Shown here in pieces: positions 16,953 to 61,858 of a stretch of DNA of 64,000 nucleotides. The stretch comes from an uncultured Acidobacteriota bacterium (GTDB taxonomy: Bacteria > Acidobacteriota > Blastocatellia > RBC074): the NCBI GenBank assembly GCA_963796275.1, contig CAWCKY010000004.1:1-64000 (forward strand), given 5' to 3'. Below the pieces are notes generated by a model. The model was not told where the DNA came from. It searched no databases and worked only from the letters and a program-made list of their open reading frames with translations. Each line of letters opens with the position of its first letter. Within the stretch, counting starts at the first letter, position 1. The position numbers were made by a program, and so were the translations under genes.

Positions 16953-17016
16953 TTCCTCCTTGAAATTCTATGTTGATTCCGCTCCGACGGAACCTGGCAG
17001 TTAACGGAGATGACGT

Positions 17017-17263: not shown

Positions 17264-17278
17264 GCAAGCGAAGTGCCA
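17264..17278 (-). promoter_or_regulatory. Sigma54 -24/-12 promoter for mbtH
   Basis: Minus strand TGGCAC-TTCGC-TTGC. Confidence 0.7.
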
Positions 17279-17399
17279 AAGCTCACCGCCACACGACAAG
17301 AACCCGAGCGAAGAGTGAAACTGCTTGACCCAGTTGAAGATGATGGTGATGGAGATGGCGATTGAAGAAGACCCCATGGCATCCGGCCGAGCCGCGTTA

Positions 17400-17508
17400 T
17401 ATCACCAATGATAATGACGTACACAAAGTTCAACTGGGCATAAGGTGCGAAGGTCTTGGCTGTCAAACGACTTCGGCACGCTTCCGGGCTGCTGTATCAA
17501 CGCTGATA
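17400..17508. promoter_or_regulatory. Two TATCA-N4-TGATA palindromes (putative enhancer)
   Basis: 17400-17413 and 17495-17508, conserved in the 53.5 kb copy. Confidence 0.6.
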
Positions 17509-17623
17509 TAACTATCTGAGCGCTGATCATGATCTGAGCTCGTCGGATAGCCATAATATTCGGTACCCTAGTTGGATTGTTGAAATGCTGTTCTCCCATG
17601 AAAATGTGGACTCGCCCAGGCTA

Positions 17624-21661: not shown

Positions 21662-21703
21662 AGCTTTCGTATCTCTATTGTATAGTCGTGATGTATTTGC
21701 GTC

Positions 21704-24448: not shown

Positions 24449-24451
24449 GGG

Positions 24452-28162: not shown

Positions 28163-28379
28163 TTATACCTCCATGACGTAGCACCGCTTTTGATTCTTTG
28201 ATTTCAGCAGAAGTATTGTCGTGATGAATCAGTACTGCCTAGTTCCTTCCGACAAGCTGGCAGACAATGAAATGAGAATTGCAAAGAAGCATCGTTTGCA
28301 GCAATGTTATAATTGCATCTATTTGTAGCCTGGAGCGCACGTGGCTCGAGTACTCTCCAAGATGGGATAATGAGGCGTA

Positions 28380-33983: not shown

Positions 33984-33984
33984 A

Positions 33985-35067: not shown

Positions 35068-35172
35068 AAAGAGTTCATGATCTGGCTCTCAAGTAGATAC
35101 TCTCCTCGAAATACGTCTCAGCACCACCTAGACGTCAGCCGCTCCCGTCACCCTCAAGTTGGGACGATGGGC

Positions 35173-39813: not shown

Positions 39814-39875
39814 CTATTATGTTCCTTACCAAGCTATTCAAAGGTGTTTGCTGGAATGGTCGAGGATATACGAAC

Positions 39876-41492: not shown

Positions 41493-41623
41493 TTCTCCTC
41501 CTCTACCGCATTTCTTTGCTGTTAACAACTAGATGTATTAACGCCTCGATAATGGTTTCTCTAATAGGCTTCGCAATAGGCTCTTGCGCAGAGAGAAGGC
41601 GGACCAAGAGATGGGGTTGGCGA

Positions 41624-43216: not shown

Positions 43217-43412
43217 TGATATCTCCTAAGGTCTCATCCGGCCATAGGCAAGGAGTTCCCAGCCACCGAACCGTTCGGCGCGAATACCAGTGCCGCAGTT
43301 TTGTATAACTGAAGGTTGTGAGAATGAGAGAAAAAAAGACAGATCGATCGCGGTACGATCCCAGGTAGAATCACAATTCAAACGCCAGCCCAAACCCAAG
43401 CATTGGGTTGCT

Positions 43413-46400: not shown

Positions 46401-46940
46401 AAGGAAAGCCAGATCACCGCTCGTAAGTTGTGGGCGCGTCCACCGCTCGGTCCATTTAGATCGAGGATCATTAATGATGGTATCTGTGGCCAGCCATAGG
46501 GGTGGCTTCAAGCCCGGAGAGCGTTCGAAGTGTCGCTCGAAACCCGACAAGACTTGAGCTGTGGTCAATGTAGCCATTGCCTCAGTATCTGTGATAATTG
46601 CTTGCAGTCGCGTCAAGTTTCGATTGTGCCGAGGTGGGTACGCCGGAACGGCCACTGCTCCCGCATACAAACAACCGAAGAATGTACTCAGATAATCCAA
46701 TCCTGGAGGATAGAATAGAAGGATGCGCTGTCCGGAAGCTCCCATAGACTGTAGCCAGGCGCCAAGCGCCCGCGCTTGTTGATCCAGTTCCCGGTAAGTC
46801 AGGCACCCGTTTTCTTCTTCTCCTTCAATCAGGAACCTATAGGCAATTCTCTCCGGTTGATGCTCCGCCCTGCGCTGCAGAAGCTCCACCAGTGTCGCCG
46901 CGTTGAATGGCGAGCAATTAACGTCGGTCGAATATTTCAT
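43413..46940 (-). CDS. Lipoinitiation protein FAAL-ACP-C
   Basis: AFLQYTSGST, WLPLYHDMGLIG, GYGLAEATL, ACP GGDSLL, C HHIACDG. Confidence 0.92.
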   Translation of the reverse strand: MKYSTDVNCSPFNAATLVELLQRRAEHQPERIAYRFLIEGEEENGCLTYRELDQQARALGAWLQSMGASGQRILLFYPPGLDYLSTFFGCLYAGAVAVPAYPPRHNRNLTRLQAIITDTEAMATLTTAQVLSGFERHFERSPGLKPPLWLATDTIINDPRSKWTERWTRPQLTSGDLAFLQYTSGSTSVPKGVMVSHGNLLHNEGVLQEAYEVSEQSVIVCWLPLYHDMGLIGNALQAVYSGASCVFMSPAAFLQRPVRWLQAINRYQATISGGPNFAYDLCVHRITRKERAKLDLSSWKVAFNGSEPIRYDTLERFAKAFEECGFRREGLFSGYGLAEATLAVTASRPSSGPVICQVQKSALEDNRVVLASQNDIGTRTLVSCGKVYGGQRLVIADPQSLIECQEGQVGEIWLSGPSVAHGYWDRPEETERTFNARLTGWDKTRFLRTGDLGFTLEENLYIIGRLKDLIIIRGRNHHPQDIELTAERSDPALRAGCGTAFTIEVDGEEQLVIVQELERSAIRNLDDDEIVWRIYEAIAEEHEIQVHQVVLIKPGSISKTSSGKIQRRATMERFLNGSLDVIRKVDLLEILSSSISRGERTRSRITNRGLAISPSERSLTVLWTKVLGVESIGRHDNFFSLGGDSLLASRLISHLRDILGIDLMFRQLFEHPTIASLSECIDRVKSTRQTQVPPIKPAERGPDLPLSFAQERLWFIEQLEPGNIAYNLPGALLIRGRLNMDALQLTLNEIVRRHESLRTTYTSLAGRPVQVVGKATPVNLHIINLNIELETNRMSVALQQTTIEVRQPFDLSNGPLMRARLLRLDEEEHVLVITIHHIACDGWSMGVLVHELATLYEAFSSKMPSPLPELAIQYGDYSVWQRDWLQGEVLESQLAYWQRQLAGAPLVTKLPFDRAHHGKMGIQGACERFVLPIAITEGLKDLSQREGATLFMTLLAAFQTLLYRYTGQEDLIVGTDVANRNLSETEGLIGFFVNLLPLRIDLSGDPSFRELLGRVREITIDAIAHQHVPFGKVVEALHPERGLTQTPFIQILCVLQNAPIPSLKLGELEVSLLPIDNETAEFELILTMEEIEEGLSCSFKYNVNLFERETIAGMTGKYQRLLESIVNNPDQLLSALQLLTGTESGGLAVSDFPEAELSQRDFENLISNLSGLGRQ

Positions 46941-46950
46941 TCTGCTAGTT

Positions 46951-47739
46951 TTAGACCTGCGCTTCCCGTAGGTTGATGAGGTTTAAGGTTAAACTCATGC
47001 ACGTCAGTCCGGCCTCAGCTTTCTCAAATTCTGAAATGTCGAGTATAGCTACTTGGAAGCCACGTTGTTCCACCAACGCGCGCGTTTGCGGATAACCGGA
47101 GGGAAGCAGCACGATTTTTCCTACAGACAGGGTATTAGCCGCCCATGGCTCCGTGGCAGGCACCTCTATGATCTCTGCCCATTCAAACGGACGAGCATCA
47201 ATCCACGAGCGGTTAAGAAGCACTGTGTTACGGCCCAGGTATGAACACCCTGTTGATAAATGTAAGCACCCATTTACTCTGACAGATCGTACATCGTAAC
47301 CATAGGGCGCCAAGATCATTCGCAACTGTGCAATCCCTTCTGTATTAGTACGACTTGATTCGCCGAGATAGAGGGTGCGGCCGATCCGTATCACATCGCC
47401 GCCTTCCAATGTCGCTGGCGGCTCGAGATATTTCAGAGGGCGGTGCCTCGCCAATACAGGAACTAAGCTATTGATTTCATCTCGCCTCCGCGAAGCCCCC
47501 ATTCGGGCAATGACAGCAAGTTCATCGACCACAACTGCGGTGTCTTCAATGAAAACGGCGTCTGGCAATGCTGGCTCTGGTGGGAGAGAAATTACCTTAA
47601 CTCCATTCTGTTTCAAGAACAGTTCATACGATTGATGTTGTCGAATGGCCTTGGAAATGTCTATCTGGACGCGGTTCAAATAGGTCAATTCACAGTTCCC
47701 GATACTGTGACTGACTTGGCGCGTAAACGCGGTCGGCAT
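46951..47739 (-). CDS. DDAH-like amidinotransferase-superfamily hydrolase
   Basis: DAVFIEDTAVV, LEGGDV, LHL, C-terminal GLTCMS. Confidence 0.85.
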   Translation of the reverse strand: MPTAFTRQVSHSIGNCELTYLNRVQIDISKAIRQHQSYELFLKQNGVKVISLPPEPALPDAVFIEDTAVVVDELAVIARMGASRRRDEINSLVPVLARHRPLKYLEPPATLEGGDVIRIGRTLYLGESSRTNTEGIAQLRMILAPYGYDVRSVRVNGCLHLSTGCSYLGRNTVLLNRSWIDARPFEWAEIIEVPATEPWAANTLSVGKIVLLPSGYPQTRALVEQRGFQVAILDISEFEKAEAGLTCMSLTLNLINLREAQV

Positions 47740-47847
47740 TTTTCTCCTTCTTCTGTTACTCTCTCTTCGGCTACTTCGGATGACGCAAAACTAACGCTAT
47801 AGTTTAACTTCCCTTCGTTTAAACAATGTTCATACCATATTCAATTG

Positions 47848-49560
47848 TCAGGCTGGGGACAAAATCGGCGGGTTACTATACGTTGCAGATATTTTCTTTT
47901 CTGCTTTCTCTTCCTCTGTAATGAGACGATCTGAGATCAATTGGCCATCCTCAAGCTTAATGAGACGATCAGCTATGTAATAGTAGCGATCATCGTGGCT
48001 GACCACCAACACGGTTTTACCTTTGGATTTCAGCTCTGGCAAAAGTTGTAGATAAAAGACATCCTTGAACTGAGGATCCTGATCTGCAGCCCATTCGTCG
48101 AATATATATATAGGCCGGTCTTCGAGATATGCAGTCAGTAGTGCCAGGCGTTTGCGTTGGCCCTGCGACAACTCAGTGGTCGAAAGCAATCCATTTTTTA
48201 TCTGAACCTTATGGTCAAGTTGAAGCTGGGCTATATATTCGCGAGCCTGTGCATCGAGTCCCGGACGATCAAGCCCATATAGGCCATCAAACAGATAGAA
48301 GTCAGAAAACACGGCAGAGAAATGCTGGCGATAATAATCCCGATTCTGATTGCTTACCGGCTGCCCATCGAAGATTATCTCTCCACTTTCAGGCGCATAA
48401 AGAGCGGAAATCAGTTTAATGAGTGTTGTTTTACCGCTCCCATTACCTCCAGTAATAAAGACTATTTCTCCAGGATTCAATTTCAAATCTATCGGTCCGA
48501 GAGTAAAGTTGCTGTTTTCGCGTTCGCGATGATAAGTGTGAGTGACATTGATAAGGTCTACTTTCTTCCAGGGAAGAGTCGAATTTGCAAGTGGAGGCGC
48601 ATCATTCTCACTTATCTTGGCTGTGAGCAAATTCTCCAATTCACCGAGCTGATCTATTGCGATCTCGGCTTGACTGATTACTGGGTACGTATTAAGCACA
48701 AATTGAAGAGGGTGAATCATATAAAGAATGACGATAACGTATCCAGTGAGCACCTCAGTGGTTGCTCCTTGAAAGTTTGGGAGATTGAAAATTAGCAACC
48801 CAATCACTACAAAAACCAACAACTCTCCCCAATTTTCAGCAATAGCATAATTAGTCGTTGCGGCGATTCGGTCACGGGCAACGGCGGCAGCGGTAGCCTG
48901 TACATTCTGAGAGAAAAATGTTTCCCGGCGCTGGCGATGAAGTTTGAGCTCCTTGCTACCATCGACCAGGGCGTGAAAATGTTTGAGCAATAAAGTCCAA
49001 GAATCACGAGCGAGCATGTAATATTTATCGGCTCTTTGTGCAAGCACAGAGTAACCAAGGCCGCCCAGGGTAAAGATTCCAACTACTGTGAGGAGTAAAA
49101 TCCACGAGAGCCAACCCATATAAACCAGACAACCCAGTACAATCGCTGTGTTTATGCAAAGATTTGGCAGATTAAACAAGGCAGCCACAATTTTCGGAAT
49201 GTCATCGGTCAACGAGGCCATCAACCGGCTGGAGCCAATAGCCTCAAGGTCCCGTAAAGGAGAGGCGAGAATCCCGCGACTTAATTGTATTCGTAAACTG
49301 TACGCTGTCCCTTTGGCGAAGCGCCTGAGAGTAATCTGAAACACTGCCTTGCTGACAGCGAATAATGCACAGGCGGCGAAGAAACTCCACACTGGGGTTG
49401 CGCCAGGGGAGTTGCTTTGTTTCAATGCGCGGCTGGCCAAAGCCAACACAATCGTGTTACTTATCCCGCCCACAATGCCTACCAACATCATAATAACGAT
49501 GAAGCTTTTCGATCGGCTGGTGCTTGTGGAGTGTCGGAGAAAGAATGAAAATAGCTTCAT
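47848..49560 (-). CDS. Cyclic-peptide export ABC transporter (PvdE/SyrD family)
   Basis: GGNGSGKT, LSQGQRKRLAL, FDEWAADQDP. Confidence 0.92.
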   Translation of the reverse strand: MKLFSFFLRHSTSTSRSKSFIVIMMLVGIVGGISNTIVLALASRALKQSNSPGATPVWSFFAACALFAVSKAVFQITLRRFAKGTAYSLRIQLSRGILASPLRDLEAIGSSRLMASLTDDIPKIVAALFNLPNLCINTAIVLGCLVYMGWLSWILLLTVVGIFTLGGLGYSVLAQRADKYYMLARDSWTLLLKHFHALVDGSKELKLHRQRRETFFSQNVQATAAAVARDRIAATTNYAIAENWGELLVFVVIGLLIFNLPNFQGATTEVLTGYVIVILYMIHPLQFVLNTYPVISQAEIAIDQLGELENLLTAKISENDAPPLANSTLPWKKVDLINVTHTYHRERENSNFTLGPIDLKLNPGEIVFITGGNGSGKTTLIKLISALYAPESGEIIFDGQPVSNQNRDYYRQHFSAVFSDFYLFDGLYGLDRPGLDAQAREYIAQLQLDHKVQIKNGLLSTTELSQGQRKRLALLTAYLEDRPIYIFDEWAADQDPQFKDVFYLQLLPELKSKGKTVLVVSHDDRYYYIADRLIKLEDGQLISDRLITEEEKAEKKISATYSNPPILSPA

Positions 49561-49749
49561 CGATAATAACTCTTGTCAAGTAAAATGAAGAATTTGTATA
49601 AAGCCCGGAAACATGTGGCTCGCAGTCGGGATTACTGCGGTTTCGCAATCATCGCAGTGCATCCGCTGCGAAAGTCCGCACGCGCTCCGTGCGCCGGTTC
49701 TAGGGCTAAACCCTGCTTCGATCGAGGGTTTGATCGTGCCTCTTTTAAT

Positions 49750-49993
49750 GAGGACTGTGCAAATTAAAGTTGATTGTTATTAGTAGTTTCTGGTTGGCTC
49801 CGGGGGAGCCCGATGTTTATAGCTTAGATGATAATGTTCATCGCAAGCTCCAGAGGAGCGACATCTGAACGCCTATATACCGCTCCTCCGGAGCTTGTGA
49901 GGTTTGGATGATCGAGTACTATAAATATTCCGCGCCGCTGGCGCTCGGTACCAAAAACATTGATTCCAATGATCTTTTATTTGCACAGTCCTC
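49750..49993. mobile_element. MITE, copy 2, inside the NRPS operon
   Basis: Perfect 15 bp TIR gaggactgtgcaaat, flanked by 9 bp direct repeat tcttttaat. Confidence 0.9.
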
Positions 49994-50062
49994 TCTTTTA
50001 ATAGGTCATCCGTTGTTTGTTATTCGGATTTTGGTGAGAAAAACGTGTAATTTAACATTACG

Positions 50063-52417
50063 TTAGAATGAATAGGTCTTACTGACATAAGTTGTATCAC
50101 TATAAGGAAACCAGCTAGAAATTAACTCACCAGGCCTTGGGTTGGAGACTAGCTCGTCCAAGGCAGGCAAATCGTAAGAAAGGTCTGTCACCTTTAATTT
50201 GATCGGCAATGACGCTTTGGTAACTAAGACCAAATCCAATCCTGCCTCTGGAAGAGGTAGATATCGTAAGCCCCATTGACCAGCTCCTCCTCCGTTCGCG
50301 GTTTTGCCATTGATTGTGGCGCTTATAACTTCTGCACCATGGTCCAAAAGGATGAAGATTATCGGGGCCTTTCTTGGGGATTTAATATTGAAATGCGAGG
50401 TTTTCACTGTCCCGCTAATGCTCTGACTCACTAAAGATATCTCGGGCACCGCGAGCTCTTTTATTGGAGCTTGAGCGCTTAGAAATGCGGGATAGGTCGA
50501 GGGAATGAAATTATCGAGCGGCCCAAGTTTTACGTGATCAGTTAGGAATCGATTGGTCCAGGCATTTAGTCTATGATCCATAGTTGCCCATATGGCCTTA
50601 CCTGAATCTGCGTTCATGGCATAGAATAGACTGCTCGGTCGCGGATGCTCTCGATCAATACGCGCTGTGAAGATGGCGGCACTAATAAACGCCACGCTCA
50701 AAATCAATGAAATCCATGGCAATAACCAGCGATCCGACATCCTGGTCCGATTCAATGCCTGATCCAAATGCGGAATGAATAACCCCGTAACTAACACCAC
50801 CAATAAAATAATGACCGGAGCCAGTGAGATGCCGAATGCCAATGATATTAGATAAATCATCGGACTCCACAATATGACCCCTGGTAGCGCGCCTGCCAAT
50901 GGAAGAAGCCTATTCTTAAAGAATGCCCCGAATGTATCGCCGATAAACATTCGGCCCCCCAAGGCGACCAAGCTAAACAATAAGGGCCAAACGAACAAAT
51001 AGCTGCCACCCGGTATAAAGATGCTTGTGGCTATCAATGGAAATAACCACCAGAATATTGCCCCCATGGCGAGGTCTAACGTGGATATCTTCTTTTGCCA
51101 GTGGCCATAAAACATGGAGAGAACAGTGAGAACCAAAGCTGCATAACCAATCAAATAATATCCGCTGTTATAAGTATCTCCTTGTGGAAACGCCTTATAG
51201 TCAGGATAGAGCATACCGATTAGCAGCGAAGCAAACGCGACAATAATTGGCGAAATCATCAGCGTCATAAGGAAAATGCCGATTCCTCGCATCAAACCTG
51301 GCCCAGACAGCATCCTTCGCCGAATACCCAGAATCGATAATCCAATATAGAGGGCAGAGACCAGAGCTGCTAAAGGTTTGGCCCAACCGTCAGAGTAATG
51401 GACCAGGCCCCACCCCGGTAGATCGAAATACACCTTGTTGTTATTTGTCGCGGTTTTCGACAGATCCATTGCGCCTAGACGTTTGGAAAGCGCAAGGGCA
51501 TACGCCCCCTGGTGTTGCAAACTGCGTTCGTCAATGTTTTCGAGGCTGTCCAGCATGGTATGGTAATGCGTGTGGCCCGAGATATAGGCGAAATTCAACC
51601 CCGCCCAGCCTGCCCTTTTAAAAACCGAGAAATCTGTGTCGTTTGGTAAAAGCCTATAGATTTCTTGAGAGAGTGAATTAGCAACTGGGTGAGGTGCGGC
51701 CTGCGCCAGTTCATCGATTAGCCAGCCATTTCCATCACTCGTCTCAAACATTATCGCAGGCCCGGAATTGCCGCGTGCCTCAAAGTTTAAAACCACTCCG
51801 ACATTGAAGGCTAACGGATGTTCGGCGACAAAAGCTCTCGCACCAAGCAATCCCGCTTCCTCTCCATCTGTAAACAAAAAGATCACATCATTTTTTAGCG
51901 GCGGACTGTTTCGTAAAGCTCTCAAGGTTTCCAGCATTGCTGCAACCCCGGCTCCATCATCGCTTGCTCCAGGGCTGGACGGAACAGAGTCATAATGGCT
52001 GACCAACACGATCGATTCGCTGTTACCAGTTCCACCTAACATAGCGACGATATTTTCTATCGTAGCAGCCTTAATTAGCCCGCTGCGATCATTACTGGTC
52101 ACCGTGGAATTTTGAATCTGAGGTGATAGCCCAAGACTGGAGAGCTGTTGATATATGTAGTCTCGCACGGCACGATGCTCGGCTGAACCCTGTGGATGAG
52201 GGCGCTTGGCGATCACTCGTAAATGCGCCATTGCCCTTGCCGAGGAAAACTCCCCAATCGGTGCATTGTCTGGCACTGCGTGCGGCGGATCGAGATGTCC
52301 AATTGCTAATCTCCCAATTAGCAAGATCACTGAAATTGATAGGAGAATAGCATAAGAGCTTGTAGCACTCAGTGCGACAACTTGCTCCGACTCTTTCGAT
52401 GTAAATGTATCTGCCAC
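50063..52417 (-). CDS. Polytopic membrane M28 metallopeptidase
   Basis: SHYDS, GASDDGAG, DGEEAGLLGA, YHT, then ~9 hydrophobic helices. Confidence 0.88.
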   Translation of the reverse strand: MADTFTSKESEQVVALSATSSYAILLSISVILLIGRLAIGHLDPPHAVPDNAPIGEFSSARAMAHLRVIAKRPHPQGSAEHRAVRDYIYQQLSSLGLSPQIQNSTVTSNDRSGLIKAATIENIVAMLGGTGNSESIVLVSHYDSVPSSPGASDDGAGVAAMLETLRALRNSPPLKNDVIFLFTDGEEAGLLGARAFVAEHPLAFNVGVVLNFEARGNSGPAIMFETSDGNGWLIDELAQAAPHPVANSLSQEIYRLLPNDTDFSVFKRAGWAGLNFAYISGHTHYHTMLDSLENIDERSLQHQGAYALALSKRLGAMDLSKTATNNNKVYFDLPGWGLVHYSDGWAKPLAALVSALYIGLSILGIRRRMLSGPGLMRGIGIFLMTLMISPIIVAFASLLIGMLYPDYKAFPQGDTYNSGYYLIGYAALVLTVLSMFYGHWQKKISTLDLAMGAIFWWLFPLIATSIFIPGGSYLFVWPLLFSLVALGGRMFIGDTFGAFFKNRLLPLAGALPGVILWSPMIYLISLAFGISLAPVIILLVVLVTGLFIPHLDQALNRTRMSDRWLLPWISLILSVAFISAAIFTARIDREHPRPSSLFYAMNADSGKAIWATMDHRLNAWTNRFLTDHVKLGPLDNFIPSTYPAFLSAQAPIKELAVPEISLVSQSISGTVKTSHFNIKSPRKAPIIFILLDHGAEVISATINGKTANGGGAGQWGLRYLPLPEAGLDLVLVTKASLPIKLKVTDLSYDLPALDELVSNPRPGELISSWFPYSDTTYVSKTYSF

Positions 52418-52596: not shown

Positions 52597-53169
52597 TCAT
52601 GTCCCTCTTAAGAGCCTAGATGTGATATCCAATTTGTCGCTAAGCTTGGTTTCATTTCCATTTGGGTCAGGAACTATTGTTACTACGGTGCCTTCATCAA
52701 GCTGAATTGCTACTGACCTCTGCAGTAAAGTTACGGAGATGACCAACCGCTTCTTATTGTCGTTTTGACATATAGCCCCCTGAACACCGGCTAGAGGACC
52801 TGTCTCTACAAGAACTACCGTTCCATCAGGGAGATAGTTCCATGGCTCTCGTAAGAAATGGCTCCGTGCTAAAAGCTGTAAGGCATCGATCTCTTCTACA
52901 GCTATTTCCGCAGGCTTCCCGCCAAACCCAACTATTCTGGTGACTCCCTTAGTTGCAATTACTTTGCCCATGGCCGAAGGACTGAGGTAGCAGAAAACAT
53001 AGGTAGAGAAAAGTGGCAACTCTATCTCTACTGTACGGTCTGACCATTTTCGCTTCTGCCGGTATGTCGGTGTAAAACACTCATAGCCTTTTTGTCCGAG
53101 CAGATAACTTATTTTCTTTTCATTCCTTGGCATAGTCTGTATAGCAAACCATGACTGCACAGTATTCAT
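52597..53169 (-). CDS. Specialized NusG paralog (UpxY/RfaH/LoaP-like antiterminator)
   Basis: WFAIQT..EKK, RKWSDR..PLF..YVF, KOW-like GPLAGVQG, RLVISVTLLQRSVA; first gene of long operon. Confidence 0.88.
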   Translation of the reverse strand: MNTVQSWFAIQTMPRNEKKISYLLGQKGYECFTPTYRQKRKWSDRTVEIELPLFSTYVFCYLSPSAMGKVIATKGVTRIVGFGGKPAEIAVEEIDALQLLARSHFLREPWNYLPDGTVVLVETGPLAGVQGAICQNDNKKRLVISVTLLQRSVAIQLDEGTVVTIVPDPNGNETKLSDKLDITSRLLRGT

Positions 53170-53236
53170 ATCAAGCTATCCCCTGAACTGGCACCACGCA
53201 TTTTTACGTCGAGCTGAATACCAGTGGATTTTATGA

Positions 53237-53248
53237 CAGGCTACTGCC
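53237..53248 (-). promoter_or_regulatory. ops-like antiterminator loading site
   Basis: GGCAGTAGCCTG vs E. coli ops GGCGGTAGCGTG (10/12), ~68 nt before the NusG-paralog ATG. Confidence 0.55.
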
Positions 53249-53349
53249 ATCCTGAGTCACATCGTAGAACTCAGGCAAATAAAAGCGAACACAGATATTG
53301 CCCTTGACTCGTTATTTCCGTGAAGCACTACTTGCCGCAAGTATTTATG

Positions 53350-53364
53350 GCAATCGAGGTGCCA
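53350..53364 (-). promoter_or_regulatory. Sigma54 -24/-12 promoter of NRPS operon
   Basis: Minus strand TGGCAC-CTCGA-TTGC followed by AT-rich tract; bEBP gene adjacent. Confidence 0.82.
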
Positions 53365-53486
53365 AAGCTCACCTCCGCATGGCGAGAGCTCGAGCGAAGA
53401 GCGAAATTGCTTGACCCGGTTGAAGATGATGGTGATGAAGGATGGCGATAGAAGAATATCCCGTGGCATCCGGCCGAGCCGCGCAA

Positions 53487-53595
53487 TATCACCAATGATA
53501 ACGCCTGGCGGAAAATTCAACCGGGCGTAAGGTGCTAAGGTCTTGGTTGTTCAACGGCTTCGGCACGCTGCCGGACTGCTGTATCAATGCTGATA
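53487..53595. promoter_or_regulatory. Two TATCA-N4-TGATA palindromes (putative enhancer)
   Basis: 53487-53500 and 53582-53595, same 95 bp spacing as the 17.4 kb copy. Confidence 0.62.
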
Positions 53596-53650
53596 TAATT
53601 ACTTGAGCGATGATCATCATCTGAGCTTGCTGGAGTGGTAGGTGGCGTGC

Positions 53651-55606
53651 TCACTTATTGAGCGCCGCTTTTGGTTTCAGCTTGCGGACCAGATGCTCGA
53701 CTTCGGCCCTTAGCTCCAGTTCGTTGATCAGACGATGGAGGTTGGGCGGTTTGATGCCGAGCAAGCCAGCAGCCTCGCTCAGGTTGCCCGTAGCCTGGTT
53801 GATAGCTTCACGGATCACACGTTTTTTAGCCTCTTCGGCCGCTTGTCTGGCAACTAGATTGATGTCGAGGCCGGGCGCGCCTGTGAGTGGAGCCAGGGCA
53901 CGAATCTCTTCGGGCAGATCTGCCGGCGCGATGAATTCAGTCGTCTCTGTTGATCCTGCATCGTGGTGTAGCACCGCATAGTAGATGGCGCTCTCTAACT
54001 CGCGCACATTGCCCGGCCAATGGTAGTTTTTCAAACAGGCTAAGGTTTCGGGGGCAATCAGCGTCACGGGCGGGTGGCGTTTCGCGCCATACTTCCTGGC
54101 GAAGTGCCGGGCAAGCAGTTCAATATCCTCACGATGATCCCGCAGCGGGGGCAAAGGGATAGGAAAGACCTTGAGCCTGTAATAAAGGTCTTCGCGGAAG
54201 GTACCAGCCTTGACGGCGGCCTCGAGATCACGATTGGTCGCGATGAGCATCCTGACGTCCACCCGGATCGAGCGCGTGCCGCCAAGTCGCTCGAATTCAG
54301 GTTTGACCTCAGAGTCCACAGGCAGCACCCGAAGCAGCTTGGCCTGCAGCGACAAGGGCATCTCGCCGATCTCATCGAGGAAGACAGTGCCGCCGTTCGC
54401 CGCTTCCAGCTTCCCTTTCTTTACTTGTATGGCCGCCCCGGTAAAGGCGCCCGGTTCGTGGCCGAAGAGTTCGTTCTCCAGCAAGGTCTCCGGGATCGCC
54501 GCGCAGTTGATCGCCATAAACGGCTGACCGGCGCGCCGGCTGCGGTCATGGACGGCGCGGGCCACCAACTCCTTACCCGTGCCACTCTCGCCAAGGATCA
54601 AGACGGTGGCGTCAGAAGAGGCCGCCCTGGCAATCTTCTCATGCACCTCAGTAATCTTCTGACTCTCACCGATGATACGGTGCTGGGACTGCAGTTCGGC
54701 GCCGAGCCGCCGGGTCTCCTGCTCTAGCCACTCAGCGCGCCAGGCTTTTTCTAACGCATTGGCGGACAGGTCGGCGATGGCCGTCACCAGGTCTATCTGA
54801 TGATCGTCGAAGCGACCGTGTTGATCATCGACGGTCAGATAAATGACGCCAAGCACCTGTCCATCAGTGATCAGCGGGACGACGAGCAACGACTGCGGCG
54901 GATCGCCATCGGTGAAGAGCATCGAACGACGTTCATACCGCGCCCGTTGAACGGGAAGGCGTTGAACTTGAATAGTGGAGTCCATCGCCGGCGGCCGAGC
55001 CTTGACCGCTTCTTCGGTCAACTCTTCAGCTTCGTCTACGAAACGGAGAAGAACTCCTCGGTCGGCGGGAACGATCTCAAAGATAGAGTCGAGCAATTGC
55101 CGCGCGAGCGCACGGGGCTTGCGGATGGCATTGATCGCCCGGCTGATCTTCAGCAACTCGTTCAGATCGCGGGCAAGTGAAGCAGCCGGCGGCAACGCGG
55201 CTGCTACTTTCGCCGGATCCAGGTAGAGCACGTCTTCCAGGCGGCGCAGGATGGTTGCGCCGATGGCAGTCGTGTCGTCACTGAACTGCACGAAGCCCGC
55301 AGGTTGTGGAACTTCGCCCTCGCCGAGCAAAAAGATGAAGACGGAATCAGCAACGGTGAGTAGATCGAAATGCGCTAACGTACGCTTCTTCACCGGCTCG
55401 TTATTGATAAACGTGCCGTTGGTGCTCAAGTCTTCGATCTCGAATTGATTCCCGACTCTGCGGATCACACAATGCTGCCGTGACACCAGATCACCGCCGA
55501 GGCATAGTTGATTGGACGGCGCGCGCCCGACAAAACATTCGTTACTATCGAGAATCACGGCCCTGCCCTTCAACAAACCGGCCACCTCTATCAGCTTAGG
55601 AGACAT
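53651..55606 (-). CDS. FHA-GAF-AAA+-HTH sigma54 enhancer-binding protein
   Basis: FHA VGR..VSRQH..STNGTF; [31 protein letters not shown]; ATG at 55606 after GGAGG. Confidence 0.93.
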
Positions 55607-55750
55607 CTTTTCCTCCAAAAACAAAACTGGTCTCTGACTGTGAAATTCCGTAAGCCCTGTGGGCCCTGGCACGATCGAGCCTGTCGATTGGCACATAGCG
55701 CATGACGGGCTGCGCTGAAAAACCGGGCTCGTCTGAATTCGATTTCCAAT

Positions 55751-56554
55751 CTACTTATGAATTAAATCAACGTTCATCATGAGGATCCCGGCCCAGAGGG
55801 AGACGTTCATCTTGACTTTGGCCGGACTGGGTGCTCCCGGTGGCAGCCCCACGTCACGCCGGATATGATCGCGCTCGGTCGGAGTTTGGGCCTGACCAAA
55901 TTTTCGGCTCTGACTCTCGCGAGCGGCGGTGTCCGCCCAAGCCAAAAGCTGTTTCCATTGCGCGGCGGATGGACGCCATGGACAGGCCTCCTGGTTATCA
56001 CGACAAAATGCGGTCAGCTGCTCCCCGGTCAGGATATCCGGCAACCGCTCGCGCGTAACAAATAGATAGAAACGTTCGATCGCCACGGCCTGGTTGAAGT
56101 GAAACCAACGAAACTCCGGATCCTCCTCGCGGCTCGAAGGAACTTCTCTGGGCACATGCGCCTTAACGAAATTATGGCCGCCCTGCAAGCGGGCGTCTGG
56201 GAAGAGCATCTTCGCCGGGCCGTCATTCTCGACATGAAAGACATAGAGATAACCGGTGATATTCGACTCGATCATAAAACGCACGGCGTCTCCCTCACGA
56301 AACGCGCGCCTGGCATTGACGCGCACTGCCGCTTCGCGCGGCCCTCGCTTTAAGAGCGTAAATCCGAGACCAATGGGCCCTGCGGGTCGAGATTGAGCTT
56401 GAGTCTTGGACTTTGAGAGATGGGTCACCACCTTGTCTCGCGTGCTCACGAAGTTGCGTACAACCTCGTCATCGTTCTCTCTTTGCGCCAGCGCTGCCGG
56501 CGCCAAACAGGTCAGAAGTATGATGGCCGCAACGCCGAAATAGCTTGATTTCAT
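55751..56554 (-). CDS. Exported DUF4384-like protein
   Basis: Signal peptide; FREGDAVRF..GYLYVF..LFP; start overlaps kinase stop. Confidence 0.75.
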   Translation of the reverse strand: MKSSYFGVAAIILLTCLAPAALAQRENDDEVVRNFVSTRDKVVTHLSKSKTQAQSRPAGPIGLGFTLLKRGPREAAVRVNARRAFREGDAVRFMIESNITGYLYVFHVENDGPAKMLFPDARLQGGHNFVKAHVPREVPSSREEDPEFRWFHFNQAVAIERFYLFVTRERLPDILTGEQLTAFCRDNQEACPWRPSAAQWKQLLAWADTAARESQSRKFGQAQTPTERDHIRRDVGLPPGAPSPAKVKMNVSLWAGILMMNVDLIHK

Positions 56555-58338
56555 CTTTGATCTCTTCTTTCTCTACCCCCAAGACCGAGATTGACCTCAA
56601 ATAGAAACGGCGCGCCGCTCGCGCGTTCCCCCGAGATGGCGACGATAGATTGAGAGCCTTGCGTATCAATGCGCACGTGCTGTCCAAACCTTCTCCGTAA
56701 CTCGGCCAATTCGGCCTCCTCCTCCGCTGTCAAGGCATGATCAGCGGCCTCGGCCAGAAAACGTGGCTGGGCTAATGGCTCGGGCGTGAAGATGATGGTA
56801 TAGGTTCGGAAGCTTGCGCCACGTGCGACTTCGATCCACTTATCCACTCGTGACGGGAAGCCATAGTCTGTTCCGGCAGCGAGCAGGTTGCCCTTCACTC
56901 CCCATGCTGAATTCGGTTGTGCGGTCAAAAACGTGGTGCGCGCCGCTCGCTCGCCCGGCGCGACGATATAGAGATAGCCGCGCCAACTCGGCACAAAATG
57001 AAACTTCAGCCATCGGCCTCTGACAACCGGATTGGCGCCCGCGACGCGCTCCGCTCTACCAGTCTCCGGCTCCACCTCCAAGTAGTATCGCATGGCCTCA
57101 ACTAATGGCCCGGATCCCGGCGTCGAACTGTCGGGGCGCGTGATGATGGTCTCTCCAGCCGGCGGATTAGCCACGCTCGAACCTGGCAGACGACTTAAGC
57201 GCCAATACGCCAGTGCGGCAATCACCGGAAGCAAAAGACACAAAGCAATACACGCTGTCCGGGCGCCGCCCAAACGAGACCAGGCGGCAACGGCAACCTG
57301 CTCATCAACGCCGGGCGCTGCGGATGGCAGAGCAATCCGCCCGGCATTAGTGGCTTCCAAGCCCGATGATTTCGTTGCATCGCGAGCGGCGGTCGCTGGC
57401 TCTTCGCGCAGGGAAACGCTCTCCATCCACGAACCGTCAATAGATGTTGCGGTGTCGTGATAATCCGGAGCGTGCGGCTGGGCTGCCGCGCGCAATGCCC
57501 GGCGCATTTCGGTCGCGGTCGCCGGACGCTCATCGGGAAGATGAGCCAGGGCGCGCATCAGCACAACGGCGACGGCTTCAGGTACTTGCCCATTCAGTTC
57601 ATTGGCTGGTCGCAATGGATCTGGCCGCCGCTCTAGCGCTGCCGTTGTGCGCGTCAGCGCATCCGCTGGGAGACGCCCCGTGATCAATCGATAGACGGTC
57701 GCGGCCAGCGAATAAAGATCACTACGCGGATCGGTTCCAGTGCCACGAATCTGCTCCAGCGGCGCATAATTGCGCGTATAACCAGGCAGGCTCTCGTCGA
57801 TCTCCTCGTCCATCTGGGACACCTCGGTCGCCGTCCCTTTAGCCAGCCCGAAGTCGAGCAAAATGACATCTCCTTGCTCGGTCAATTTTAAGTTCTGCGG
57901 CTTGATATCTCGATGGACAACCGGCGGCTGATGACCGTGCAAGTATTCGAGCGCATCGAGCAGTTGATCAGCCCAGCGCAGAACCTGGTTCACGGCGAAG
58001 GCTTCACCGGTCTCCTGTATCTTTTCAGCCAGCAGTTCTTCCAGGTCTTTTCCCAGAAACAACTGCATGACAAGATACTGCGCTTCCCCTTCTGTGAAAT
58101 GATCCGTAACGTGCGGAAATACACGGTGGCGGAGCCGATGCAGCAACCTTGCTTCGCGTGTAAAAGCCTGGCGGAACTTCGCCTGAGTGAAGTAAGCCTC
58201 TTTCACCGCAACCCGGCTGCGAAACAGCCGGTCCTCGGCAAGATAAACGCTCCCCATCCCGCCCTGTTTGAGCAGAGACAAGATGCGATAGCGATTCTGC
58301 AGCACAGTGTCAGCTGCTAGTTTGCCAGATCCCATCAT
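56551..58338 (-). CDS. Membrane Hanks-type Ser/Thr kinase with extracytoplasmic domain
   Basis: GGMGSVY, VAVKE, HRDIKPQN, DFGLAK, YAPLEQ, one TM helix. Confidence 0.93.
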   Translation of the reverse strand: MMGSGKLAADTVLQNRYRILSLLKQGGMGSVYLAEDRLFRSRVAVKEAYFTQAKFRQAFTREARLLHRLRHRVFPHVTDHFTEGEAQYLVMQLFLGKDLEELLAEKIQETGEAFAVNQVLRWADQLLDALEYLHGHQPPVVHRDIKPQNLKLTEQGDVILLDFGLAKGTATEVSQMDEEIDESLPGYTRNYAPLEQIRGTGTDPRSDLYSLAATVYRLITGRLPADALTRTTAALERRPDPLRPANELNGQVPEAVAVVLMRALAHLPDERPATATEMRRALRAAAQPHAPDYHDTATSIDGSWMESVSLREEPATAARDATKSSGLEATNAGRIALPSAAPGVDEQVAVAAWSRLGGARTACIALCLLLPVIAALAYWRLSRLPGSSVANPPAGETIITRPDSSTPGSGPLVEAMRYYLEVEPETGRAERVAGANPVVRGRWLKFHFVPSWRGYLYIVAPGERAARTTFLTAQPNSAWGVKGNLLAAGTDYGFPSRVDKWIEVARGASFRTYTIIFTPEPLAQPRFLAEAADHALTAEEEAELAELRRRFGQHVRIDTQGSQSIVAISGERASGAPFLFEVNLGLGGRERRDQR

Positions 58339-58381
58339 TATGCTGGCGCGCGTGGCCAGATCGCCACGCCGTCCTCAGTCC

Positions 58382-61300
58382 TTATCGTTTGCCTTCCAGG
58401 TTCGCCCACTCCCCCGCCTGGATAAAGCTCGCCCAGTAAAATGGATGCTGGCGAGCTTTGCGTTTCAGCATCTCGAGTTGCACGCGCCGCAGCCCATCGC
58501 TTCGCCCCTCGCCGTGTTGCAATGCCTTGTAGTACTCGATCATCAATTCCCGCGTACCCAGATCAGAGACCGACCACAGACTCATCACCTGCGTCTCCGA
58601 TCCGGCCAGCGCCAGCGCACGCCGTAGTCCAAAGACCCCTTCGCCATTCTTCACCTCGCCCACGCCCGTGTCGCAAGCCGAGAGCACGACCAACTTCGTC
58701 CCCCATAAATCCAGCCCCGCAGTTTCTAGCGCCATCAGGACGCCATCGTCTCCGTGATCGGCGCTGCCCCGGCGTCGATTGACACCAGCTAGCGCCAGTC
58801 CTGAACGCAGCAGTGGGTTCTCAACCGGCTGATCAGAGGACGACACAGACCGGACCGTCACCGCGCCCATATCGCGCGCGCCAACCAGCTCAAGCTTTTG
58901 ATCCCGGAGGAAAAATCCATGCGTCGCCACGTGGAGAATGCTCGGACCGTGGAGTTCCTTGAGCGCCGCCTCGGTAGCCTGCTCTCTCGTCAACACTGTT
59001 GCCTGGGGCAGAATCGCTTTGAGCGTCTGCGCCTCGCCCGCCGTCCCGACCAATGGCGGGAAAAAGACGCCAGACAGGTTGAGTGCGCCGGCGGATTGCG
59101 GAGACCCGGGCGGTAGCCCGATATCTCGGCCACTTGACGCGGCCGCTCTCTCACCGTAAGCGGGATTGGCCACAATCACTACCCTCTGCTCGCCCGGCCG
59201 GTCAACAGACGTCCGCAGCAGTTCACGACCGCTCGTCAGATAGCTGATCGAATAGCGTTCGACCAGGTAGTGACCTTGCCGGTCAACGAGGGCGGCGAAT
59301 GGAACAAGATTGAGCAAACCGTCAGGCGCGATCAGCAGACGCCGGATATCCCCCAACCCTGACTGCGCTAATCCCAACACGGGCCGCATCACCTGCTCAT
59401 CCACCACGCGCGCCAGTCGCTTGACGTCCCTCCGGCGCGGATTGCGCAGCGCCCGGCGCCAGGCAGTCATCGCCCGATCAATCGGCGCGGCCTCGCCCAG
59501 GTCGATCCACCTCGCCTCGCCTCGCGCAGCCAGCCAATAGGCGAGGTAGCGCGGCGGCATCTTGTTCTTATTGTTCCGCAGGTCCCTCGGCGTGTAGACG
59601 GCAAATTCGACCAGGGCGCTGTCAGAGGGGAGAGCTTCCTGGACGGCAGCCAGCGTGACCGGTTGAACTTGCGTGCGAAACTCCGGGCGGCGGGCACTCA
59701 AGGCCGATTCCAATTCCTCAACTTTGTCTTCGCGCAGTTTGAGTCGCGCCCGGTAGGTCTCAGGCTTATCCGTTCCCAACTCTCCGAGGGTGAGCGCAGC
59801 CAACTGTGAGCGCGCCTCGGCGAGTTGATCAAAGAGCGTCTGGTCTTCAGGTGCCGCGCGACGTCGCGCTGCGGCGATCGTGTCGGCCATCACATCGAGT
59901 CCACGCCCTTTCCGGCGGAGCAGAGTCGTGAAAGCCAGTTCGAGCGCCTGAGGATATTGCGGGAGGGCTTGACTATGAAGCGAGAGAGTGAAATTGGTTT
60001 GTTCCGAGAAGAGGGCGAGGTAAGCGAGTATCTGGCGTTCAGAGCCGGTGGCGAGATTGAGCGTGAGGTTGCGTTCACCGAGGGAGTTGGCGCGAGACAG
60101 AACTTTGACGGCTTGAGCGAAATCGCCTTTTGCCGTATAAAGCGCGGCCAGATTGTCAAGAAACCCCACGACATCGGGATGTTCTGGCCCCATCGCATTC
60201 TCCAGGATGGCCAGCGCCCGTTGGAACAACGCCTCAGCTTTCGCATACTCACCCTTCTCTCGATAGAGAACTGCAAGTCTATCCATAGAATGAGCGACAT
60301 CGGGGTGCTCAGGCCCTAGCGCTTTCATCTGTATGGACATCGCTCGTTGAAATAGTGTCTCCGCCTTCACATAGTCCCCCCGGTCGCGATAGAGGATGGC
60401 AAGGTTGCTGAGGGGATTCGCAACCCTTGGATCGTCTGGCCCCAAGGCTTTCTCCCGAATGTCTACTGTCCGTCGAAGTAGTCGCTCTGCCTGCTCAAAG
60501 TCGCCGCTGTCGAAGTAGAATTGCGCCATATTGTTGAGGGTAGAGGCAATATCGAGGTGATCCGGCCCCAGCGTTTTCTCACTGATCGCCAGTGCGCGCT
60601 GATAGAGTTCTTCAGCCTTCACGTAGTCTCCCTTGCTGCTGTAGAGATAGGCGATGCTGTGGAGAATTAGAGCGACCCTGGGGTGTTCTGGTCCCAGAGC
60701 CTTCTCCGAAATGGCCAGCGCGCGTAGGCCCAGCTGTTCCGCTTTCGTGTAGGCGCCTCTCCCGCGGTACAAGAGGGTGAGGTTCATGAGAGATTGCGCG
60801 ACATCGGGATGACCCGGACCTAGGACCTTCTCCCGAATGGCGAGCGCTCGTTGATAGAGAGACTCGGCCTCCGCATATTCGCCCATACGGGCATAGACAT
60901 TGGCAAGATTGTTGAGAGAGTTCGCGACATTGGAATGTTGCGGCCCCAGCGCTTTCTCAAGGATGGCCAGCGGGCGTTGAAACAGTTGTTTTGCTTTTAG
61001 GTATTCACCTCTATGGAGAGAGATGACCGCAAGGTTGTTGAGAGTTTTAGCGACATCGGGATGTTCCGGCCCCAAGACCTTCTCCCGGATGGCGAGCGCT
61101 CGCTCGTAGAGTGGCTCGGCCTTCGCATATTCGCCCTTATTCCAGTAGAGGTTGCCGAGGACGTTGAGAACCTCAGCCGCATCGCGATGTTCCAGCCCTA
61201 ATAGCCTCTCACGAATCCCCCGCGAACGTTCAATTAACGGAAGCGCTTCTCCATGCCTGCCTGCGCCTATCAGTTTGAGCCCCTCTTGAAGCAGCTTGCG

Positions 61301-61858
61301 CGCCTCGTGCAAAGCGCGGTCATTCTCATCCGCGGCGCGCAGCTCCTCGATCCAAATCTCATAGTCTCCTGCCGGCGCCTGCTTCTGCCCTGGCCGTACT
61401 GTCAGCCCATAGGCACCTGACGATTCGGCTACATGCGACAACAATTCCTGTCCCTGGCTCCTGCCTTCCATGTCGAACTCCGCGATCTGCTCGCCGCCTG
61501 GTCCTGACAGTCGCGCCACAACGTCAATGCCTTGCTGCTCGATGATCACCTTCAGATATTGACCGGCGCTCAGCCTGATCTGATAAGTTTGGCTATGATC
61601 ACCCGCCAATTCGCGTTTAATGGGTTGGCCAGGCTCAAGCAGAAGCGCCTCTTTCTCATTATCGGCTTTGCTGCTGGCATCACGCGGCGCTTGAGTTGGC
61701 TGTTGGCCAGGTCTCGCGAGTATGTACCCCAAAGTGTTCACCGAGAGAGCTATGGCCAATGAGCAGAAGAACAGGCAAAGGGATTTAGCCAAGCTTTGAG
61801 ATGTGAACTGCTGGTTAGGTCCGTTTAAAGCTGAGTCGGGTCGGCTTCGATCAGTCAT
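58382..61858 (-). CDS. PPC-like + TPR + CHAT (caspase-like) protease
   Basis: N-terminal hydrophobic segment, ~9-10 42-aa TPRs (LGPEHPDVA), catalytic HVATHGF and LSACDTG, HPFYWASF. Confidence 0.9.
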   Translation of the reverse strand: MTDRSRPDSALNGPNQQFTSQSLAKSLCLFFCSLAIALSVNTLGYILARPGQQPTQAPRDASSKADNEKEALLLEPGQPIKRELAGDHSQTYQIRLSAGQYLKVIIEQQGIDVVARLSGPGGEQIAEFDMEGRSQGQELLSHVAESSGAYGLTVRPGQKQAPAGDYEIWIEELRAADENDRALHEARKLLQEGLKLIGAGRHGEALPLIERSRGIRERLLGLEHRDAAEVLNVLGNLYWNKGEYAKAEPLYERALAIREKVLGPEHPDVAKTLNNLAVISLHRGEYLKAKQLFQRPLAILEKALGPQHSNVANSLNNLANVYARMGEYAEAESLYQRALAIREKVLGPGHPDVAQSLMNLTLLYRGRGAYTKAEQLGLRALAISEKALGPEHPRVALILHSIAYLYSSKGDYVKAEELYQRALAISEKTLGPDHLDIASTLNNMAQFYFDSGDFEQAERLLRRTVDIREKALGPDDPRVANPLSNLAILYRDRGDYVKAETLFQRAMSIQMKALGPEHPDVAHSMDRLAVLYREKGEYAKAEALFQRALAILENAMGPEHPDVVGFLDNLAALYTAKGDFAQAVKVLSRANSLGERNLTLNLATGSERQILAYLALFSEQTNFTLSLHSQALPQYPQALELAFTTLLRRKGRGLDVMADTIAAARRRAAPEDQTLFDQLAEARSQLAALTLGELGTDKPETYRARLKLREDKVEELESALSARRPEFRTQVQPVTLAAVQEALPSDSALVEFAVYTPRDLRNNKNKMPPRYLAYWLAARGEARWIDLGEAAPIDRAMTAWRRALRNPRRRDVKRLARVVDEQVMRPVLGLAQSGLGDIRRLLIAPDGLLNLVPFAALVDRQGHYLVERYSISYLTSGRELLRTSVDRPGEQRVVIVANPAYGERAAASSGRDIGLPPGSPQSAGALNLSGVFFPPLVGTAGEAQTLKAILPQATVLTREQATEAALKELHGPSILHVATHGFFLRDQKLELVGARDMGAVTVRSVSSSDQPVENPLLRSGLALAGVNRRRGSADHGDDGVLMALETAGLDLWGTKLVVLSACDTGVGEVKNGEGVFGLRRALALAGSETQVMSLWSVSDLGTRELMIEYYKALQHGEGRSDGLRRVQLEMLKRKARQHPFYWASFIQAGEWANLEGKR

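Follow-up and report, generated by a model that had tools for sequence, protein, structure and literature searches.

A putative transenvelope sensory module of Blastocatellia with a sigma54 activator and a portable promoter cassette as its predicted output

Introduction

FHA-domain sigma54 enhancer-binding proteins of Myxococcus xanthus are said to have been described by Jelsbak et al. in 2005 and Volz et al. in 2012, and enhancer-binding proteins of this species have reportedly been linked to secondary-metabolite production. Threonine phosphorylation also operates in type VI secretion, through the PpkA kinase, Fha1 and PppA. Specialized NusG paralogs are found beside long operons; a review names UpxY (Bacteroides capsules), LoaP (Bacillus polyketides), TaA (Myxococcus antibiotic TA) and RfaH with its ops element, and describes such paralogs as carrying RNA polymerase through these operons (PMC7819879). 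In the type III-E Craspase the TPR-CHAT protease Csx29 cleaves Csx30, which binds Csx31 and RpoE (10.1101/2022.08.17.504292), and a kinome survey lists DUF4384 fused to bacterial kinases (10.1101/2025.01.12.632604). Here we describe a locus from an uncultured soil member of the Blastocatellia (Acidobacteriota) in which genes for a TPR-CHAT protease, a Hanks-type Ser/Thr kinase, a secreted DUF4384 protein and an FHA-type sigma54 activator lie in tandem, ahead of a nonribosomal peptide synthetase (NRPS) operon headed by a NusG paralog.

The source is a metagenome-assembled genome (MAG) of 9.46 Mb in 7 contigs, and the window, meaning the whole stretch of DNA that was analyzed, is the first 64 kb of contig C4. 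The whole analysis is computational. On balance, and with moderate confidence, we read the locus as a Blastocatellia sensory module that spans the cell envelope and has as its output a sigma54 activator, equipped with a portable promoter cassette of its own. As is reported for the Myxococcus FHA activators, an FHA domain is combined here with an AAA+ sigma54 activator domain, the input presumably comes from a Hanks-type kinase, and natural-product genes are placed under predicted sigma54 control. Like UpxY, LoaP, TaA and RfaH, the NusG paralog of the window is the first gene of a biosynthetic operon (about 35 kb) and is preceded by a 5' leader; a 12-mer resembling ops lies in this leader.

Soil Acidobacteria with large genomes carry many biosynthetic clusters that cannot so far be activated, and a term search of one paper on these genomes returned no mention of sigma factors, kinases or NusG (PMC9723581). 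No description of the present four-part combination, or of the triad formed by its protease, kinase and DUF4384 genes, was found in the main texts of open-access papers and bioRxiv preprints. What appears to be new is the combination of an exported protease, a DUF4384 kinase and its paralog, an FHA activator and a portable cassette; the kinds of component are already known.

The four-gene unit and its promoter cassette

The four genes (the quartet) and the leader that follows them (leader 1) have the following features.

58382..61858, minus strand: TPR-CHAT protease, 1158 aa (Pfam TPR repeats and CHAT PF12770, E 2e-78)
56551..58338, minus strand: Hanks-type Ser/Thr kinase, 595 aa (Pfam Pkinase, E 9e-33)
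55751..56554, minus strand: secreted DUF4384 protein, 267 aa, with a signal peptide at residues 3-25 (Pfam DUF4384, E 5e-12)
53651..55606, minus strand: FHA-GAF-AAA+(GAFTGA)-HTH_8 sigma54 enhancer-binding protein, 651 aa (Pfam FHA, GAF, Sigma54_activat, AAA_lid_14 and HTH_8)
53170..53650, minus strand: leader 1, 480 bp of non-coding sequence after the activator stop codon, with palindromes, a predicted sigma54 promoter and an ops-like element
53609-53618, leader 1: third palindrome GATGATCATC, 10 bp (read from the sequence)
53582-53595 and 53487-53500, leader 1: TATCA-N4-TGATA palindromes, 95 bp apart (motif search)
53350-53364, minus strand: predicted sigma54 promoter, exact TGGCAC-N5-TTGC at -24/-12 (motif search)
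53237-53248, leader 1: ops-like 12-mer GGCAGTAGCCTG, about 100 nt past the promoter (motif search)

The stop codon of the CHAT gene and the start of the kinase gene are 43 bp apart, there is a 4-bp overlap between the kinase gene and the DUF4384 gene, and the DUF4384 stop codon is separated from the activator gene by 54 or 144 bp, according to the start codon chosen for the latter. The TPR-CHAT gene is likely to start at the ATG at 61858. The activator start is put at the ATG at 55606 rather than at the alternative ATG at 55696, a choice that is probably correct because 16 orthologues are 649-672 aa long.

The original prediction, made from the sequence of the window alone, had listed four linked and co-oriented genes, paired palindromes, a sigma54 consensus, an ops-like site, a NusG paralog and NRPS genes, and every one of these items was confirmed by Pfam or motif searches. 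It had also noted a recurrence of the cassette before mbtH, and this holds over about 460 bp: leader 1 aligns with 17096-17540 at 81% identity over 460 nt, or 85% over 278 nt, and matches nothing else in the genome beyond this second copy (leader 2). The cassette is thus present twice, ahead of the NRPS operon headed by the NusG paralog and ahead of the MbtH gene.

16953..17623, minus strand: leader 2, the duplicate cassette, with its own palindromes, predicted promoter and ops-like element
17495-17508 and 17400-17413, minus strand: palindromes with the same 95-bp spacing (motif search)
17264-17278, minus strand: predicted sigma54 promoter, exact match (motif search)
17157-17168, minus strand: ops-like element GTCAGTAGCCTG (motif search)

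In leader 1 the promoter sits about 136 bp beyond the second palindrome (P2). Palindrome pairs with members within 300 bp of each other occur twice genome-wide, both times in these leaders; a palindrome at C4:439749 was judged a chance match, lying inside a TPR coding region. Searches of the coding strand of either leader for sigma70-like promoters and intrinsic terminators returned none. RNA folding of the two 5' untranslated regions (UTRs) gave z values of -1.79 and -0.10, neither of them significant, and a small hairpin at the ops-like site was the one structure common to both.

Comparison of the two promoter regions (53325-53364 in leader 1, 17250-17278 in leader 2) revealed a 13-nt insertion, ATTGCCATAAATA, directly after TGGCACCTCG in leader 1. 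The ancestral CTTGCGG, kept in leader 2 and reading CTTTC in relatives, has been shifted 13 nt downstream in leader 1, and the insertion supplies a TTGC at the correct -12 spacing, so that the promoter spacing has been preserved through the indel.

Conservation of the unit and cassette in relatives

Relatives were gathered with the DUF4384 protein as query, the most specific of the four. In metagenome contigs found in this way (68-85% identity to the query) the order CHAT, kinase, DUF4384, activator is kept, and across the quartet it is retained at 60-85% protein identity. A kinase match precedes the DUF4384 gene in 17 of the 18 contigs with at least 600 bp upstream, and the activator follows it in 13 of the 16 with at least 1 kb downstream. 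The activator also stays near the kinase and DUF4384 genes through four different gene orders (L021, L022, L023 and L079), and in a sister genome (G001) the quartet is arranged identically, at 62-74% identity. The relatives are for the most part short metagenome contigs, and the counts overstate their independence since several are near-identical (L103/L105/L113 and L114/L115). By these sequence comparisons, the four genes are a conserved unit.

The AAA+ domain of the activator (PF00158, E 1e-67) has GAFTGA and Walker A (GESGTGKE) motifs that are invariant in 10/10 aligned proteins. Its FHA domain (PF00498, E 2.6e-16) is equally constant at G27 R28, S42 R43 H45, N63 and N68 (10/10), that is, at the Gly-Arg, Ser-x-x-His and Asn residues that we take to bind phospho-threonine. 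The genome encodes rpoN (PF04552, 198 bits, at C3:1419712-1420188). In a quick maximum-likelihood tree, from which L001 was omitted as a duplicate of L021, 14 quartet activators form a clade with a Shimodaira-Hasegawa-like approximate likelihood ratio test (SH-aLRT) value of 100, and those of L022 and L023, also encoded near kinase-DUF4384 genes, are sister to it at 92. The second FHA-GAF activator of the window genome (C4:250576) falls in a separate clade. Among 19 loci (16 genomes) of other FHA-GAF activators of the family, none has the quartet alongside; a kinase of some kind is encoded within 10 kb in five of them, and one (L008) has a CHAT gene as well as a kinase.

The paralogous FHA-GAF activator lies outside the window, at C4:250300-252537 of the same genome (G000), and is 43-46% identical. 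Several TATCAAT/ATTGATA-type palindromes occur upstream of it, with TATCAATTTTGATA at 250508, and these may be a related binding site of the paralog itself.

The cassette was detected by blastn 3' of the activator in 9 of the 11 contigs that span the complete activator gene and extend 300 bp or more past it, and in six of these the match reaches through the promoter; the remaining two (L114 and L116) carry TGGCAC-N5-TTTC together with a palindrome resembling P2. Conservation across the leader alignment is highest at the palindromes, and the distance from P2 to the promoter is 135-138 bp in eight copies, the window included. The genes behind the cassette are diverse. They encode a 1216-aa WD40 protein (L120, L101), DUF4394-CBM6 proteins (L106), an FG-GAP protein (L109) and a Reg_prop/HisKA_3 sensor kinase (L114), all of which start with a hydrophobic N-terminus, and no NusG paralog, M28 peptidase or NRPS gene follows the cassette in those contigs. 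In L106 two cassette copies precede two paralogous DUF4394-CBM6 genes, as with the duplicate in the window. This comparison gives good support to a link from activator to cassette, and by the same comparison the cassette belongs to the activator rather than to the NRPS genes.

It is likely that the activator acts on the cassette. A number of observations weigh against the overall reading. Motif counts are at chance level: the promoter pattern with at most one mismatch gives 4 matches against 4.36 expected, the exact pattern gives 27 genome-wide against about 18 expected (counted as chance level), and the ops-like 12-mer with at most one mismatch gives 30 genome matches against about 42 expected, with no enrichment. 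The ops likeness is judged against an E. coli consensus, GGCGGTAGnnTG, which GGCAGTAGCCTG fits at 11/12 positions with nn counted as free. The promoter of relatives is TGGC[AG]C-N5-TTTC, so that the -12 element reads TTTC and not TTGC. Leaving aside this gene and its FHA-GAF paralog, the genome yields about 45 further matches to sigma54 activators. In G001 there is nothing cassette-like after the activator gene, so adjacency is not universal, and the cassette is found on a different contig. From the chance-level counts, the many other activators and the case of G001 it could be argued that the adjacency is incidental, and that another of these activators or a route independent of sigma54 drives both leaders. 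We regard this as improbable. All 11 sufficient contigs keep at least part of the cassette right after the activator orthologue, the palindromes are conserved where the downstream genes differ, and neither leader yielded a sigma70-like promoter. The motif counts alone are not above chance, but the arrangement is, because the only two palindrome pairs of the genome sit in these leaders and the cassette is conserved in relatives.

The sensor proteins

The TPR-CHAT protein has an N-terminal transmembrane (TM) anchor at residues 25-48, followed by a beta-rich domain, about nine TPR_12 repeats and the CHAT domain. H980 (in LHVATHG) and C1062 (in LSACDTG), which we take to be the catalytic dyad, are invariant in 4/4 aligned proteins. 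A hydrophobic segment (Kyte-Doolittle hydropathy of at least 1.6) is present at 42 of 48 TPR-CHAT N-termini, the majority resembling classical signal peptides.

The kinase comprises a kinase domain (residues 1-290), a variable linker, a TM segment (355-382) and a DUF4384-like ectodomain (405-595). K46, H142-R143-D144 (HRD) and D162-F163-G164 (DFG) are invariant in 11/11 sequences, and within the variable linker there is one invariant residue pair, Thr330 and Gly333 (TNAGR; Thr330 in 11/11). In the window protein the similarity of the ectodomain to the DUF4384 alignment was detected by hhalign only (82% probability, E 1e-5); the kinase of a relative gives a Pfam DUF4384 match in its ectodomain at 35.7 bits. 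The small secreted protein scores 46.3 bits with the DUF4384 model (PF14326), for which the gathering cut-off is 27. Sequence similarity thus makes the small protein a DUF4384 paralog of the kinase ectodomain.

The structure model of the DUF4384 protein has an Ig-like beta-sandwich core. Foldseek found no match to it in the PDB at E values up to 0.001; in a wide VIA-align search the best match (Z 7.4) was the Ig-like domain of Pycsar AGS-C, followed by filamin, RbmA and macroglobulin domains. For this predicted model such matches are within the generic range of beta-sandwiches and offer no functional lead. Complex prediction for the kinase ectodomain (405-595) with the DUF4384 protein (25-267) scored 0.01, against a mark of 0.32, and weighs neither way.

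The site where the protease, the kinase ectodomain and the DUF4384 protein come together is probably external to the cytoplasmic membrane, a localization based on hydropathy and charge counts rather than on a dedicated predictor. The alternative is that TPR-CHAT acts in the cytoplasm, where it would cut the FHA-GAF region of the activator or the kinase linker, with proteolysis as the activating step, as with Csx29 and Csx30. At its N-terminus the window protein shows an anchor and no clear cleavable signal peptide, and charge counts are the sole basis for the orientation of this anchor, which counts against an external protease. The type III-E report also describes cleavage of Csx30 by a TPR-CHAT protease and notes that some Csx30 C-terminal domains are DUF4384 (10.1101/2022.08.17.504292). 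Even so, a cytoplasmic protease seems quite unlikely here. TPR-CHAT proteins of the triad type have classical signal peptides, and the window-type orthologues in L113 and L110 have 4-5 Lys/Arg ahead of the hydrophobic segment and one behind it. In addition, the DUF4384 protein has a signal peptide and the DUF4384 domain of the kinase lies beyond its TM segment.

The triad without the activator

The DUF4384 profile found 80 genome loci, of which 69 have a full-length relative. The kinase gene is directly upstream of the DUF4384 gene in 64 of these 69. Where 4 kb or more of room is available (52 loci), a TPR-CHAT gene follows immediately in 44; it lies upstream in two. On a complete Pyrinomonadaceae chromosome (L027) the three genes stand alone, encoding TPR-CHAT, a DUF4384 protein and a kinase whose ectodomain scores as DUF4384 in Pfam. 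The family was present in 61 of 201 sampled Blastocatellia genomes and 23 of 62 genera, a tally that includes the unpublished genomes G139 and G203; an earlier tally, including the unpublished G004, was 21 of 41 genomes. As judged from these gene neighborhoods, the triad is found widely among Blastocatellia in a form that lacks the activator.

Four contigs (L103, L104, L105 and L113) hold a copy of the system in decay. The CHAT gene is split into two open reading frames (ORFs), the kinase gene is reduced to the ectodomain (residues 421-595) and the activator ORF is intact. In L103, L105 and L113 the leader is matched in its first part only, through the first palindrome, and L104 ends within the activator gene. 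Past the first palindrome the sequence of L105 resembles transposase remnants by eye, no family search having been run. This kinase-less variant looks like decay rather than a working alternative, because the CHAT gene is also split and the leader is interrupted by an insertion sequence (IS).

These data bear on whether the triad and the activator work together. An FHA-type activator is nearby in only 5 of the 69 triad loci, three contigs (L111, L112 and L117) yielded no activator match in the 1 kb or more of sequence past the DUF4384 gene, and the activator of L079 falls outside the quartet clade, at a position that the tree does not fix; all three points weigh against the sensory-module reading. 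Since most triad loci have no activator nearby, the kinase does not need the activator as output. It can accordingly be proposed that the activator controls the cassette but receives its signal through its GAF domain or from an unlinked kinase, and that the triad is a separate envelope module (for example for surface-protein processing or a cell-death-type response) merely beside the activator gene. The retention of an intact activator ORF in the variant that has lost its kinase domain would fit such a separation, as would the presence of the GAF domain and the frequency of the triad on its own. We consider this proposal rather unlikely, because the FHA residues taken to bind phospho-threonine are invariant and the unit's only kinase adjoins, the quartet order is kept at 60-85% protein identity, the neighborhood has survived four gene orders, and the kinase-less variant carries the other marks of decay described above. 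That the kinase signals to the FHA domain is held with moderate confidence.

The biosynthetic operon and its link to the cassette

Three features lie downstream of the two leaders.

52597..53169, minus strand: NusG specialized paralog of the UpxY family, 190 aa (Pfam NusG, E 2e-16)
17624..52417, minus strand: NRPS-type biosynthetic genes, about 35.5 kb below the NusG paralog (Pfam)
16362..16952, minus strand: MbtH-domain fusion protein, 196 aa (Pfam MbtH)

The NusG paralog narrowly passes the NCBIfam model for the UpxY family (NF033644; 103 bits, cut-off 100). Identification as RfaH (TIGR01955, 74.6 bits, cut-off 144.5) or LoaP (NF033641, 51.6 bits, cut-off 125) was rejected. By Pfam, the front of the cluster holds a membrane M28 peptidase, an ABC transporter and an amidinotransferase-like gene; the NRPS line begins with an AMP-binding/DIP2-like loading domain and continues with further condensation-adenylation-thiolation (C-A-T) modules. 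Two CmlA-like beta-hydroxylases and two TauD domains are present, and the terminal thioesterase ends at 17624. In the fusion protein a proline-rich linker connects the MbtH domain (residues 7-56) with some 130 aa of C-terminal sequence, for which no Pfam family match was found.

The cassette is linked to a NusG paralog and an MbtH gene in the window genome and in G001 (on another contig) only. The separate G001 contig of 3.4 kb carries the palindromes, a TGGCAC-N5-TTCC promoter, the NusG paralog (67% identical to that of the window) and then, directly, the MbtH fusion (85% identical). In the window genome the NRPS genes, with the second cassette copy, lie between NusG and MbtH. Compared with that of the window, the G001 5' UTR has an insertion of about 230 nt, and the ops-like block is kept as GGCGGCAGCCTG, with two changes that both preserve the 5-bp hairpin. 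On the same contig (C907), divergent from the cassette-NusG-MbtH unit (MbtH fusion at L127 204-791), there is a gene at L127 2368-3423 with a hydrophobic N-terminus, behind which come stretches reminiscent, by eye, of the N-terminal domain and the TPR repeats of the window CHAT protein, no family search or comparison having been run; the contig ends before any CHAT domain could appear.

The simplest history is that a cassette owned by the activator came to drive a NusG-paralog/MbtH unit within the genus, although the order of events is an inference. G+C content is 0.47-0.49 at 48-54 kb (first cluster genes) against 0.56-0.61 at 54-62 kb (quartet), with a step at leader 1 that fits a later insertion of the NRPS cluster. 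The NRPS wiring would then be a recent, genus-level co-option of a cassette that drives secreted proteins elsewhere. The expectation from the original prediction that a neighborhood survey would tie the quartet to biosynthetic operons is borne out within the window, where the cassette twice precedes NRPS-related genes, but not in relatives, where it precedes secreted proteins or a sensor histidine kinase.

Other features of the window

An O-antigen/polysaccharide export-type block lies at 778-10674. It includes an ABC-2 permease and methyltransferases (Pfam), a Wzt-like ATPase with a Wzt_C domain fused to an FkbM methyltransferase, and a 1024-aa triple GT4 glycosyltransferase that weakly matches 'GT4 in conflict systems'. 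Between the genes for the ABC-2 permease and the MbtH protein, long ORFs are scarce over roughly 5.6 kb (10700-16360). A methyltransferase at 12847-13563 (plus strand) provided the sole Pfam family among the ORFs tested there, those at 13988-14833, 15680-16114, 15834-16394 and 11594-11941 having none. Pfam results for the larger ORFs of the window contained no CRISPR/Cas domains, and no search aimed at Cas7-11 was made. In a search of sequencing runs, one soil DNA run contains 0.16 of the query words and no RNA run was listed.

Proposed mechanism

In the proposed sequence of events, an extracytoplasmic signal would alter the DUF4384 kinase, and the exported TPR-CHAT protease would probably cut or bind the DUF4384 partner or the ectodomain; a place for the protease upstream of the kinase is put forward only tentatively. 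The kinase would autophosphorylate, with Thr330 of the linker as candidate site and FHA docking point. The FHA domain of the activator would read the phospho-threonine and the GAF domain would add a second input, upon which the AAA+ ring may assemble on the palindromes and open sigma54 promoters. The NusG paralog, translated first, could load at the ops-like hairpin in the 5' UTR and keep RNA polymerase processive over about 35 kb, and the second cassette may reinforce mbtH expression.

The idea of a quartet cascade wired to the operon, already part of the original prediction, is thus upheld as to the four-gene unit and the conserved cassette after the activator, whereas the kinase-to-FHA step, the protease step and promoter activation remain inferred. 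Its suggestion of envelope sensing gains support from the TM segment and DUF4384-like ectodomain of the kinase, the signal peptide of the DUF4384 protein and the signal peptides or anchors of the TPR-CHAT proteins. A role in damage- or competitor-induced defense is speculation.

A bolder reading, which we think doubtful as a whole, takes the triad as a transenvelope device of a new class, in which a caspase-like protease would be exported and would control a Hanks kinase through cleavage of the secreted DUF4384 paralog (acting as decoy or co-receptor) or of the ectodomain. One lineage would have gained an FHA-sigma54 activator with an enhancer/promoter cassette that spread by duplication to recruit genes, including the NRPS cluster.

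Returning to the sensory module with a sigma54 output, the activator, its likely DNA sites, the promoter and the antiterminator together suggest a concrete route to activating a silent cluster of the peptide-antibiotic type in a heterologous host, by way of an N-terminally truncated activator, RpoN and the NusG paralog. The comparison also shows regulon growth by the copying of a 300-bp enhancer/promoter cassette, and defines an uncharacterized envelope module of three genes that many members of one bacterial class, the Blastocatellia, possess.

Comparison with known systems

As in the PpkA/Fha1 pathway, a membrane Hanks kinase with a periplasmic sensor domain would signal to an FHA protein upon envelope cues. 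There, the FHA protein acts post-translationally on the secretion apparatus, whereas here the FHA domain is part of a transcription activator. By analogy with Craspase, a TPR-CHAT protease is genetically coupled to a DUF4384-containing partner and a transcription-initiation factor. In the present case the output is a sigma54 activator instead of an extracytoplasmic function (ECF) sigma factor, with a kinase placed in between. The protease and the DUF4384 parts have a predicted location outside the cytoplasm, and the Pfam results for the larger ORFs of the window show no CRISPR components. The window NusG paralog falls below the model cut-offs of RfaH and LoaP, and its operon differs from known NusG-paralog operons in having a predicted promoter of the sigma54 type and a leader element conserved as a small hairpin. 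With respect to the Myxococcus FHA activators, the system described here is found in Acidobacteriota, its activator has an additional GAF domain, and its neighbors are a kinase with a DUF4384 ectodomain, a secreted DUF4384 paralog and an exported TPR-CHAT protein; furthermore, the cognate promoter cassette is identifiable here, and portable.

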